Shown here: piece after piece, positions 1,417-5,992 of the stretch | Layout: each line of letters starts with the position of its first letter | Numbering within the stretch: position 1 is the stretch's first letter | Source of the DNA: Escherichia coli | Lineage (GTDB): Bacteria; Pseudomonadota; Gammaproteobacteria; Enterobacterales; Enterobacteriaceae | NCBI RefSeq assembly: GCF_003334305.1 | Contig: NZ_QOWS01000014.1 | DNA length: 64,000 bases | Reading direction: 5' to 3' (one strand) | Made by a program: the position numbers and the translations under genes | Notes under the pieces: model-generated | What the model was told of the DNA's origin: nothing | The model's database searches: none | Seen by the model: the letters and a program-made list of their open reading frames with translations, nothing else

Positions 1417-1493
1417 GGCTACGTAGCTCAGTTGGTTAGAGCACATCACTCATAATGATGGGGTCACAGGTTCGAATCCCGTCGTAGCCACCA
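1417..1493 (+). tRNA. metT: tRNA-Met (elongator, anticodon CAU)
   Basis: 77 nt GGCTACGTAGCTCAGTTGGTTAGAGCACATCACTCATAATGATGGGGTCACAGGTTCGAATCCCGTCGTAGCCACCA with encoded CCA. Confidence 0.95.
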
Positions 1494-1502
1494 TCTTTTT
1501 TT

Positions 1503-1587
1503 GCGGGAGTGGCGAAATTGGTAGACGCACCAGATTTAGGTTCTGGCGCCGCAAGGTGTGCGAGTTCAAGTCTCGCCTCCCGCACCA
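1503..1587 (+). tRNA. leuW: tRNA-Leu (anticodon UAG)
   Basis: 85 nt GCGGGAGTGGCGAAATTGGTAGACGCACCAGATTTAGGTTCTGG...CGCACCA with long variable arm and encoded CCA. Confidence 0.95.
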
Positions 1588-1610
1588 TTCACCAGAAAGC
1601 GTTGTACGGA

Positions 1611-1685
1611 TGGGGTATCGCCAAGCGGTAAGGCACCGGTTTTTGATACCGGCATTCCCTGGTTCGAATCCAGGTACCCCAGCCA
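1611..1685 (+). tRNA. glnU: tRNA-Gln (anticodon UUG)
   Basis: 75 nt TGGGGTATCGCCAAGCGGTAAGGCACCGGTTTTTGATACCGG...CCCCAGCCA; anticodon loop TTTTGAT. Confidence 0.95.
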
Positions 1686-1700
1686 TCGAAGAAACAATCT

Positions 1701-1777
1701 GGCTACGTAGCTCAGTTGGTTAGAGCACATCACTCATAATGATGGGGTCACAGGTTCGAATCCCGTCGTAGCCACCA
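1701..1777 (+). tRNA. metU: tRNA-Met (elongator, anticodon CAU), second copy
   Basis: Sequence identical to the copy at 1417-1493. Confidence 0.95.
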
Positions 1778-1825
1778 AATTCTGAATGTGTCGAATACGT
1801 TCGGCAAATTCAAAAACCAATTTGT

Positions 1826-1900
1826 TGGGGTATCGCCAAGCGGTAAGGCACCGGATTCTGATTCCGGCATTCCGAGGTTCGAATCCTCGTACCCCAGCCA
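1826..1900 (+). tRNA. glnV: tRNA-Gln (anticodon CUG)
   Basis: 75 nt TGGGGTATCGCCAAGCGGTAAGGCACCGGATTCTGATTCCGG...CCCCAGCCA; anticodon loop ATTCTGATT. Confidence 0.95.
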
Positions 1901-2053: not shown

Positions 2054-3229
2054 CTACAACCCTAACGCATATTTCAGCGCCTGACGTTTCAACACGCCAG
2101 CACGCTCTGCCGCCATTAACCCGAGATTACGCACAAAACGCAGCGGCGGCAGATTATTACTGAATCCGGCATAAAACAGATCCATACCACTTTGCATAAT
2201 GAAGTTATCCGCCATGCGCCGCATCTGGTAACGCTTGAGGACAGGATAACTGGCCCACGCTTCACCGTAGCTGCGGGCATTCACCAGAACATCAATCAGG
2301 GCATCGACATCACGATAACCAAGATTCACCCCCTGCCCCGCCAGCGGATGGATGGTATGCGCGGCATCGCCCACCAGCGCAAGCCCCGGCTGCACATACT
2401 GCAACGCATGTCGGCGCGTCAGCGGAAACGCACCAGCGGCAAGCGGTGTAACGTAACCCAGACGCGACGGGAAATGCTTCGCGATTTCCGCCTGGAGTTG
2501 CGCCATATTCATATTCTGCAACTGGCGAATACGTACCGGAGAGTCATACCACACCAGCGATGCCCAGTTATCAAACAACGGCAGAAACGCACGCGGTCCG
2601 TCCGGGGTAAATTGCTGCCAGGTGCTGTCGCCGGGATCGTTCTCACACTGTACGCTAATCAACATACACGACTGCGCATACTGCCAGGCATGAACGCCAA
2701 TTCCCGCCATCTGCCGCACCTGCGAATTTGCGCCGTCAGCACCAATCACCAGCTTCGCGCGAATCACTTCACCGCCCTTCAGTTCCAGCTCCTGAAGATC
2801 ATTATCTCGATGTAATGCAATCAGCGAGCCTGGCACACGTAACGTTACTTTCGGATGAGCTTCCAGCGCCTGCCACAATGCCTGTTGCAGGACGGTGTTT
2901 TCCACCATATAGCCAAGCAGCGGCAGCTTAAGTTCAGCGGCGTCAAACATCACATGCGCCGTTTCCCACTCCCACGTTTCCAGTCTGCGGTAAGGATGGC
3001 AACGCATAGCCTGTACTGCATCCCAGACCCCTAACCCTTTAAGCAATGATACCGATGCGGCGCTGATCGCCGAGATCCGCACGTCCGGTTGGCTATCAGC
3101 GACAAACGGTGCAGGTTCTGCGTGCTCGATCACCGTTACCGAAAATCCGTGCTGTGCCAGCCCCAGCGCCAGTGCGCCGCCGACCATTCCTCCGCCGACA
3201 ATGGCAATTTCCGTTGGTTGATTTGTCAT
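2054..3229 (-). CDS. ubiF: 2-octaprenyl-3-methyl-6-methoxy-1,4-benzoquinol hydroxylase (FAD-dependent)
   Basis: Track ORF 2054..3235 begins with TTG; the ATG at 3229 gives MTNQPTEIAIVGGGMVGG (FAD-binding GxGxxG), 391 aa. Confidence 0.9.
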   Translation of the reverse strand: MTNQPTEIAIVGGGMVGGALALGLAQHGFSVTVIEHAEPAPFVADSQPDVRISAISAASVSLLKGLGVWDAVQAMRCHPYRRLETWEWETAHVMFDAAELKLPLLGYMVENTVLQQALWQALEAHPKVTLRVPGSLIALHRDNDLQELELKGGEVIRAKLVIGADGANSQVRQMAGIGVHAWQYAQSCMLISVQCENDPGDSTWQQFTPDGPRAFLPLFDNWASLVWYDSPVRIRQLQNMNMAQLQAEIAKHFPSRLGYVTPLAAGAFPLTRRHALQYVQPGLALVGDAAHTIHPLAGQGVNLGYRDVDALIDVLVNARSYGEAWASYPVLKRYQMRRMADNFIMQSGMDLFYAGFSNNLPPLRFVRNLGLMAAERAGVLKRQALKYALGL

Positions 3230-3374
3230 GGTCAATCATCCTGTTAGCAATATGCTTTAAGTTTACAGGATTTTTACCCCCAAGGGCTGATAACGCTCAT
3301 ACTGGTCACAACGGCAGCAAAGCATTACACTATGCGCCCTGCATTCCTGGCTACTATTTCGCAAGAGCAAGTCG

Positions 3375-4799
3375 ATGACCAAAAAACTCCATATTAAAAC
3401 CTGGGGCTGTCAGATGAACGAGTACGATTCATCGAAGATGGCCGATCTGCTGGATGCCACCCACGGCTATCAACTGACCGACGTGGCGGAAGAAGCGGAT
3501 GTGCTGCTGCTGAACACCTGCTCAATCCGCGAGAAGGCTCAGGAAAAAGTCTTCCATCAGTTGGGTCGCTGGAAACTGTTAAAAGAGAAGAATCCAGACC
3601 TGATTATCGGCGTCGGTGGCTGCGTGGCATCGCAAGAAGGCGAGCACATTCGCCAGCGCGCCCACTATGTCGATATTATTTTTGGGCCGCAAACGCTGCA
3701 CCGTCTGCCGGAGATGATCAACTCCGTGCGCGGCGACCGCAGCCCGGTTGTAGATATCAGCTTCCCGGAAATCGAGAAGTTTGACCGTCTACCGGAACCG
3801 CGCGCCGAAGGGCCGACCGCGTTTGTCTCCATCATGGAAGGCTGCAATAAATATTGTACCTACTGCGTGGTGCCTTACACCCGTGGTGAAGAGGTAAGCC
3901 GTCCGTCTGACGATATTCTGTTTGAGATTGCCCAGCTTGCTGCTCAGGGCGTGCGTGAAGTCAACCTGCTCGGTCAGAACGTGAACGCCTGGCGTGGTGA
4001 AAACTACGACGGCACCACCGGATCGTTTGCCGATCTGCTGCGTCTGGTTGCTGCGATCGACGGGATCGATCGTATTCGCTTTACCACCAGCCATCCGATC
4101 GAATTCACCGACGATATCATCGAAGTGTACCGCGACACGCCTGAGCTGGTGAGCTTCCTGCATCTGCCGGTACAAAGCGGTTCCGATCGCATTCTGAACC
4201 TGATGGGCCGTACTCACACGGCGCTGGAGTACAAAGCGATCATCCGTAAACTGCGTGCGGCGCGTCCGGATATTCAGATCAGTTCTGACTTCATTGTTGG
4301 CTTCCCTGGCGAAACCACCGAAGACTTCGAGAAAACGATGAAGCTGATTGCCGACGTCAATTTCGACATGAGCTACAGCTTTATCTTCTCTGCACGTCCG
4401 GGGACGCCCGCCGCCGATATGGTGGATGATGTTCCGGAAGAAGAGAAGAAGCAGCGTCTGTATATTCTGCAAGAGCGCATTAATCAGCAAGCGATGGCGT
4501 GGAGCCGCCGGATGCTCGGCACCACCCAGCGTATTCTGGTAGAAGGGACTTCGCGTAAGAGCATCATGGAGCTTTCCGGGCGTACCGAAAATAACCGCGT
4601 GGTCAACTTCGAGGGCACACCGGATATGATCGGTAAATTCGTCGATGTAGAAATTACCGACGTCTACCCGAACTCTCTGCGCGGTAAAGTGGTGCGTACT
4701 GAAGATGAAATGGGTCTGCGCGTGGCAGAAACACCGGAATCGGTGATTGCCCGTACCCGCAAAGAAAACGACCTTGGCGTGGGTTATTATCAGCCGTAA
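3375..4799 (+). CDS. miaB: tRNA-i6A37 methylthiotransferase (radical SAM)
   Basis: 474 aa; CNKYCTYC radical-SAM cysteine motif; ATG at 3375. Confidence 0.95.
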
Positions 4800-4951
4800 T
4801 TCTCAGGCCCGCCGTTCCGGTGGGCCTTGTTTTTTCTCTCTTTATCCCCATCTTTATCGCAATGCTTGCGCCTTTTTCCTGTGGCGTGAATAATTTCCTT
4901 ATAGGCCGGTGAATGTTCAGCTTCCGGCGACATACAGATAAGAGGAACGGT

Positions 4952-5992
4952 TTGAACATAGACACTCGCGAAATCACCCTGGAGCCAGCAGACAACGCGC
5001 GTCTGTTGAGCCTGTGCGGCCCGTTTGATGACAACATCAAGCAGCTCGAACGCCGTCTCGGCATCGAGATCAATCGCCGCGACAACCACTTTAAACTGAC
5101 CGGCCGTCCGATTTGCGTCACCGCTGCGGCAGACATTCTGCGTAGCCTGTATGTCGATACAGCCCCGATGCGCGGTCAGATTCAGGATATCGAACCGGAA
5201 CAGATCCACCTTGCGATTAAAGAAGCGCGAGTACTGGAGCAAAGTGCGGAGAGCGTGCCGGAGTACGGCAAAGCGGTCAATATCAAAACCAAACGCGGCG
5301 TAATTAAGCCGCGCACGCCAAACCAGGCGCAGTACATCGCCAATATTCTCGACCATGACATTACCTTCGGCGTTGGCCCGGCGGGTACGGGTAAAACCTA
5401 CCTGGCAGTGGCTGCGGCAGTTGATGCCCTGGAGCGTCAGGAGATTCGCCGTATTCTGCTGACTCGTCCGGCGGTCGAAGCCGGTGAGAAACTGGGCTTC
5501 CTGCCTGGCGATTTAAGCCAGAAAGTAGACCCGTATCTGCGCCCGCTGTACGACGCGCTGTTTGAAATGCTGGGCTTTGAGAAAGTTGAGAAACTGATTG
5601 AGCGCAACGTTATTGAAGTCGCGCCGCTGGCCTATATGCGTGGTCGTACGCTGAACGACGCGTTTATCATTCTCGATGAGAGCCAGAACACCACCATCGA
5701 ACAGATGAAGATGTTCCTGACCCGTATCGGTTTTAACTCAAAAGCGGTTATCACCGGCGACGTCACACAGATCGACCTGCCGCGTAATACTAAATCAGGC
5801 TTACGTCACGCCATCGAAGTGCTGGCCGATGTCGAAGAGATCAGCTTTAACTTCTTCCACAGCGAAGACGTGGTTCGTCACCCTGTGGTGGCGCGTATCG
5901 TTAACGCCTATGAAGCCTGGGAAGAAGCCGAACAAAAACGAAAAGCGGCGCTGGCGGCAGAACGCAAGCGCGAAGAACAGGAACAAAAATGA
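4952..5992 (+). CDS. ybeZ: PhoH-like ATPase
   Basis: Walker A GPAGTGKT; probable TTG start at 4952 preceded by AGAGGA (346 aa); track ORF begins at ATG 4913. Confidence 0.85.

Follow-up and report, generated by a model that had tools for sequence, protein, structure and literature searches.

Translation start of ybeZ in Escherichia coli: evidence for the TTG codon over the upstream in-frame ATG

The open reading frame of ybeZ, a gene whose product is an ATPase that partners YbeY, an RNase of rRNA maturation, offers two candidate start codons in the 64,000-nt stretch of Escherichia coli DNA analyzed here (the window): an ATG at position 4913 and a TTG at position 4952. These codons share the same frame because they are 39 nt apart, and with the common stop codon TGA at 5990-5992 they would give proteins of 359 and 346 amino acid residues, respectively, the shorter one being encoded by 1041 nt including the stop. 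The question is which of them the ribosome uses. From the features of the region, its conservation, Shine-Dalgarno (SD) energies, the point at which codon periodicity sets in, and the existing annotation, all of which were computed, we infer with a probability of about 0.93 that translation of ybeZ begins at the TTG (4952) and not at the ATG (4913).

Layout and annotation of the ybeZ start region

The elements of the start region, all on the plus strand, are as follows.

4910-4912, plus strand: in-frame TGA stop directly 5' of the ATG, the 5' limit of the ORF (from reading the sequence and the ORF list)
4913-4915, plus strand: upstream in-frame ATG, a triplet restricted to some lineages, within the variable segment of the 5' untranslated region (5'UTR), probably not a functional start
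4941-4946, plus strand: SD sequence AGAGGA with the core GAGG at 4942-4945, located 5 nt 5' of the TTG
4947-4951, plus strand: spacer ACGGT between AGAGGA and the TTG
4952-4954, plus strand: probable ybeZ start codon TTG, assigned from orthologue conservation, the RefSeq and K-12 MG1655 annotation, and the onset of codon periodicity
4952-5992, plus strand: ybeZ coding sequence for a PhoH-like ATPase, 346 residues plus stop, equal to WP_001018040.1, NP_415193.2, and Swiss-Prot PHOL_ECOLI

The AGAGGA that the initial annotation had placed 5 nt before the in-frame TTG is indeed found there on reading the sequence, at the coordinates given for it, and 25 nt separate it from the ATG.

The TTG start of ybeZ is already known from curated reference annotations. 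In every RefSeq record inspected (strains E2865, K-12 C3026, WL297, and 23CRST026), the PGAP start is the TTG and the protein is WP_001018040.1. E. coli K-12 MG1655 has the same gene with the same TTG (b0660, 692338..693378, minus strand, 1041 nt, NP_415193.2; TTG at 693378 and ATG at 693417) in the same synteny, miaB-ybeZ-ybeY-corC(ybeX)-lnt, and its ybeZ leader differs from that of the window only by two SNPs, A/G at 4931 and C/T at 4858. The 346-residue sequence, with M for TTG, is exactly that of the Swiss-Prot entry PHOL_ECOLI, a PhoH family protein, so the YbeZ length that had been given in favor of this start was correct. Homologs from Citrobacter and Enterobacter are likewise annotated from the TTG-equivalent codon, and the IMG homolog P0007 is recorded with a literal N-terminal L. 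The accession of the ybeZ protein carries version.2, and those of its neighbors carry version.1, which suggests a past revision of the start; the earlier form of NP_415193 was presumably the 359-residue one. This longer form is widespread in GenBank and Logan automated gene calls.

Literature and supplements were also searched. The full-text search returned nothing on the ybeZ start codon or TTG, there are no ybeZ entries in the N-terminomics and TIS supplements of TRAINSPOTTER, Giess 2017, and 'Proteins a la carte', and neither N-terminal peptides nor retapamulin/Onc112 initiation-profiling data for ybeZ were found in the sources searched. A MazF listing gives an ACA upstream of the ybeZ start at a distance of 17 nt (PMC6437054); this distance was considered as support for the TTG and set aside, as it agrees with the TTG annotation, yet is not independent evidence of it. 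The C-terminal PhoH P-loop NTPase domain of YbeZ matches the PhoH-like protein of Corynebacterium glutamicum (PDB 3B85; phmmer, E = 6e-80, 206 residues) over the full length of the solved chain, Walker A motif GPAGTGKT included. This alignment spans YbeZ residues 129-334 (in the numbering of the 359-residue form) and the N-terminal region is absent from the solved homolog, so structures say nothing about the ybeZ start.

The local gene order, derived from ORFs and annotations, is ubiF (minus strand), miaB, ybeZ, ybeY, corC/ybeX, and lnt, and window positions 1824-64000 align collinearly, at 99.67% identity, with strain E2865. The 421 nt around the start (4780-5200) are 100% identical to several RefSeq genomes annotated with WP_001018040.1 and are found at 95% identity or more in 5425 of the 5426 complete E. 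coli genomes. Several observations were made on the neighboring genes. The start of ubiF (window 3227-3235, minus strand) shows the opposite ambiguity: its longest ORF begins at a TTG with AGGA 3 nt upstream and codes for 393 residues, and the RefSeq start is an ATG two codons downstream (391 residues, 1176 nt). The tRNA array upstream of ubiF (window 1417-1900) consists of 5 genes (Met, Leu, Gln, Met, Gln) in the window and of 7 genes (Met, Leu, Gln, Gln, Met, Gln, Gln) in strain E2865, a difference in repeat-unit copy number as judged by BLAST. Between lnt and gltI, E2865 carries a gene for a rhomboid-family intramembrane serine protease (772842-774719, approximately window 9065-10942, minus strand), which the RefSeq record of that strain marks as a pseudogene with an internal stop.

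Translation signals and the onset of coding constraint

SD strength was scored as the ViennaRNA duplexfold energy between positions -18 to -4 and the 16S rRNA 3' tail ACCUCCUUA; the matching 64-kb E. coli region, with 59 RefSeq-annotated starts and 6019 other ATG, GTG, or TTG triplets, served as the comparison set. The median energy was -5.8 kcal/mol for the annotated starts versus -1.7 kcal/mol for the nonstart triplets. The TTG at 4952 scored -6.0 kcal/mol, a value reached or bettered by just 4.2% of the nonstart triplets, and the ATG at 4913 scored -2.9 kcal/mol, which is equalled or bettered by 29% of the nonstart triplets and is weaker than 81% of the annotated starts. The contrast between the two codons exceeds chance, and the claim that the ATG has no comparable ribosome-binding site holds, its SD being at background level. 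What had been called a strong SD, however, is that of an average gene, close to the median of the annotated starts, with GAGG as the pairing core; the contrast with the ATG was real, and the strength was overstated. By position, AGAGGA qualifies as an SD sequence, defined as anti-SD complementarity 4-10 nt upstream of an ATG, GTG, or TTG. Of the 59 annotated starts in the 64-kb region, 3 are TTG; lipB and rsfS are also annotated from this codon, with SD energies of -6.6 to -9.4 kcal/mol.

Local mRNA folding points in the same direction. Opening the ribosome footprint (-15 to +12) costs 4.1 kcal/mol at the TTG versus 8.7-9.3 kcal/mol at the ATG, which lies in the following element.

4905-4928, plus strand: small 5'UTR hairpin of the local minimum free energy fold, with an outer stem of GCCGG (4905-4909) and CCGGC (4924-4928) and an inner stem of UGA (4910-4912) and UCA (4917-4919)

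The AUG at 4913-4915 occupies the tetraloop of this hairpin, and the 8 nt 5' of the AUG are tied up in its stems (4905-4912 with 4917-4928). Although UUG is by nature a poorer initiation codon than AUG, SD pairing and accessibility combined should favor the TTG by several kcal/mol. Folded as a whole, the leader does not exceed shuffled sequences in stability (z = 0.42), so only the local hairpin around the ATG is claimed here and no global leader structure.

The GC-rich hairpin (GCCGG...CCGGC) sits right after the start site predicted for sigma70-type transcription, and in an alignment of 28 Enterobacteriaceae, other genera have differently sequenced but self-complementary segments at the same site, such as GCCGGA...TCCGGC. 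It may act as a 5'-terminal stabilizing stem-loop.

Comparison with orthologs shows where coding constraint begins. One scan of species-representative genomes yielded 80 orthologous loci with 84-100% protein identity, all from Enterobacterales, including Escherichia, Citrobacter, Enterobacter, Kluyvera, Pantoea, Erwinia, Pectobacterium, Dickeya, Serratia, Yersinia, Rahnella, Edwardsiella, Hafnia, Budvicia, Proteus, Photorhabdus, Xenorhabdus, and others. Of these, 73 have TTG as the codon corresponding to 4952, with (A/G)AGGA approximately 5 nt upstream. In an alignment anchored on these 73 codons (TTG, 100%), GAGGA is 97-99% conserved (99/99/97/97%) and the T at position -1 is 95% conserved. 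Among the in-frame candidates, the TTG has the best SD in 71 of the 80 loci, and the mean SD energy across loci is -5.8 kcal/mol for the TTG versus -1.65 kcal/mol, equal to background, for the upstream candidates. In the same 73 loci, conservation by codon position is 0.90/0.93/0.60 over the first 24 codons after the TTG, and 0.39/0.41/0.52, with no coding signature, over the 13-codon putative extension outside the SD. Periodicity is thus present after the TTG and absent before it, and therefore coding constraint starts at the TTG.

The leader of Shimwellia pseudoproteus (locus L032), approximately 45 nt upstream of locus position 1501, contains tandem SD-like units: it reads AAGAGGTCCCTGT AAGAGGTCACTGT AAGAGGT AAGAGGAATAGT TTG, with 3-4 successive AAGAGG motifs before the TTG.

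The ATG at codon -13 was found only in Escherichia, some Citrobacter, and Kluyvera. Even there it is not constant, being ATA in Citrobacter R56 (L015) and out of frame by a 1-nt indel in Citrobacter FP75 (L011). An in-frame stop 5 codons before the TTG, with no start in between, occurs in seven other species (loci L006, L007, L024, L025, L028, L029, and L078), among them Pseudocitrobacter, Pluralibacter UBA7423, Pseudescherichia, Superficieibacter, Escherichia sp. ESNIH1, and Rosenbergiella epipactidis. Within E. coli, none of 5425 genomes has an indel or more than 2 mismatches in the 65 nt of the start region, a variation too low to inform on the start; read in the hypothetical extension frame, one of the two SNPs observed is synonymous and the other changes D to N.

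The best-surviving alternative, which we still regard as unlikely, is dual initiation, with the TTG producing the main 346-residue protein and the ATG a minor 359-residue isoform in the few genera that have it. Both codons lie on the predicted transcripts (see below), no stop interrupts the frame from one to the other in Escherichia, some Citrobacter, and Kluyvera, the sequence itself would permit low-level initiation at the ATG, and the A/U-rich leader 5' of it could support some SD-independent initiation. Against this stand the poor SD and poor accessibility of the ATG and the behavior of the extension itself, which diverges within the clade at intergenic rates (MFSFRRHTDKRNG in E. coli versus MFSVRRDMLKRNS and MLVFRQLTHKRNS, as translated by eye) and tolerates both the Citrobacter indel and the loss of the ATG; therefore, any 359-residue isoform would not be under selection.

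That the ATG is the main start, giving a 359-residue YbeZ with the N-terminal extension MFSFRRHTDKRNG, is more improbable still. It would be the canonical codon of the longest ORF, it is used in many GenBank and Logan gene calls, and both the ATG and the frame are intact in the four aligned E. coli genomes and in E. albertii. However, in most other genera it is absent, mutated, frameshifted, or blocked by a stop, even though the downstream protein is 85-98% identical; the extension has no codon periodicity, its AUG combines a background-level SD with a position in a hairpin, and curated annotations take the TTG form. A start 3' of 4952, such as the in-frame TTG 18 codons further, has a negligible probability: in-frame TTG and CTG codons do occur within the first 20 codons, but codons 2-24 show strong amino acid conservation and third-position periodicity in the 73 loci and are therefore translated, no SD-like sequence is seen before the downstream candidates, and the first in-frame ATG is over 80 codons further on.

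Initiation at the TTG, the reading that the conserved codon and SD, the periodicity, the loss of the ATG in relatives, the accessibility, and the curated references all support, in agreement with the initial annotation, would proceed in a conventional way. The anti-SD of the 30S subunit would pair with GAGG(A) at 4942-4946, bringing the TTG 5-6 nt further 3' into the P site, and fMet-tRNA would decode it to start a 346-residue PhoH-like protein beginning with M-N-I-D-T-R-E. The ATG at 4913 would be an incidental leader triplet inside a small hairpin, with no usable SD, approximately 50 nt 3' of a predicted sigma32-type promoter and 10 nt 3' of a conserved, likewise predicted sigma70-type promoter.

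Predicted promoters and the variable leader

The DNA between miaB, which ends at 4799, and the ybeZ leader contains three elements.

4805-4837, plus strand: miaB intrinsic terminator, a 10-bp GC-rich hairpin (4805-4827) followed by a T-tract (terminator scan)
4826-4853, plus strand: predicted sigma32-like promoter, CTTGTTT (4826-4832), a 13-nt spacer, and CCCCATCT (4846-4853), with a predicted transcription start at approximately 4860
4864-4897, plus strand: predicted sigma70-type promoter, TTGCGC (4866-4871), a 17-nt spacer, and AATAAT (4889-4894), with a predicted transcription start at approximately 4901-4903

Both promoters and their start sites are predictions from motifs and from conservation in the intergenic alignment of 28 Enterobacteriaceae, in which the terminator stem differs between genera but stays self-complementary. 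The element at 4826-4853 was matched against the sigma32 consensus, and sigma32 promoters were reportedly mapped by Nonaka in 2006. The CC..A..T of its CCCCAT box is invariant in all 28 sequences. The ybeZYX genes have been stated to be sigma32 regulated (PMC6943124; bioRxiv 10.1101/2023.03.20.533420), and a sigma32 ChIP signal was found at ybeZ (PMC2996942). The predicted sigma32-type promoter begins inside the 3' end of the miaB terminator stem and spans the T-tract, so one short stretch would both end miaB transcription and start heat-shock transcription of ybeZYX.

The block at 4864-4897, GCTTGCGCC...GGCGTGAATAATTTC (also given as GCTTGCGCCTTT...GGCGTGAATAATTTC), shows a column conservation of at least 90% in the 28 Enterobacteriaceae, far above that of the flanking DNA. 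The promoter scan missed it because it matches 8 of the 12 consensus positions and the threshold was 9 of 12. It overlaps a small hairpin with a T-run (4858-4879) that was flagged by the terminator scan. Reg-Seq lists one binding site for the ybeZ promoter (PMC7567609), and the block may hold a regulator site as well. The full-text literature search returned nothing on the transcription start site of ybeZ.

This block is followed by a hypervariable, indel-rich stretch of approximately 35-100 nt, which contains the ATG, and the last element before the gene is the invariant AAGAGGAAcaGT-TTG-AA block. Both predicted transcripts contain the ATG, and therefore transcription leaves its use possible; it is the translation signals that speak against it.

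Possible maintenance of a weak start codon

The one small addition that this analysis makes to the curated start concerns the identity of the codon, and it is offered tentatively: the weak TTG might be actively maintained by selection across Enterobacterales and not merely tolerated. When the 73 orthologs with TTG were aligned by codon and four-fold degenerate sites were taken for comparison, none of the 84 such sites was invariant and all 57 of those with a pyrimidine majority showed a transversion, yet the T at the first position of the start codon, which separates TTG from ATG and GTG, is invariant in all 73 loci.

Seven Morganellaceae-like loci (L071, L075, L077, L079, L080, L082, and L083, from Xenorhabdus, Photorhabdus, Moellerella, Proteus, and one Enterobacteriaceae metagenome-assembled genome) have TCA, CCA, GCA, or TCG in place of the TTG and have lost the AGGA SD. 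Their only in-frame start is a GTG located 5-6 codons upstream, after ATAGAGATAATCA (AAAAGGATAATCA in Proteus), with an SD energy of -2.9 kcal/mol (-5.4 kcal/mol in Proteus). In Yersinia nurmii and Y. thracica (L060 and L068), 18 nt are duplicated in tandem and in frame (GTGACCTAGAGGAACTCA / GTGACCCAGAGAAACAGT), 45 nt upstream of locus position 1501. An intact AGAGGA thereby comes to lie 5 nt upstream of a GTG at codon -6, and in front of the TTG the SD has degenerated to AGAGAA; in these two species, translation probably begins 6 codons further upstream. In the aligned loci that have lost the TTG or its SD, or in which either has degenerated, the start appears to have moved to another non-AUG codon (GTG) and never to ATG.

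A selectively maintained non-AUG start is known in infC, whose AUU codon is used for the autoregulation of IF3. The ybeZ TTG resembles it in being a weak start codon that is invariant over long evolutionary distances, which would imply that the identity of the start codon is itself functional; it differs in that AUU is a nonstandard start codon whereas TTG is a standard minor one. We know of no regulatory mechanism for the ybeZ start. By way of speculation, to which we give somewhat less than even odds, the output of YbeZ could be deliberately limited, possibly relative to that of ybeY. The junction of the two genes is relevant to this idea.

5989-5992, plus strand: ATGA overlap of the ybeZ stop (TGA, 5990-5992) and the ybeY start (ATG, 5989-5991), the two annotations overlapping by 4 nt

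Such stop/start overlaps are an arrangement typical of translational coupling, and a weak ybeZ start could therefore also influence the output of ybeY. The TTG may cap YbeZ synthesis or set the YbeZ:YbeY ratio through the ATGA-coupled ybeY, or it may make initiation sensitive to IF3 or to stress in a sigma32-controlled operon.

The correct start sets the true N-terminus for cloning, tagging, or modeling YbeZ, and beyond such annotation hygiene it carries little weight. As the 359-residue form still circulates in gene calls, constructs made from it would carry 13 spurious residues. The same start also defines the real 5'UTR of approximately 50-90 nt, with the promoters of the operon. The apparent maintenance of the weak TTG hints at a deliberately limited output of YbeZ, a small point on the balance of expression within the ybeZYX-lnt operon.
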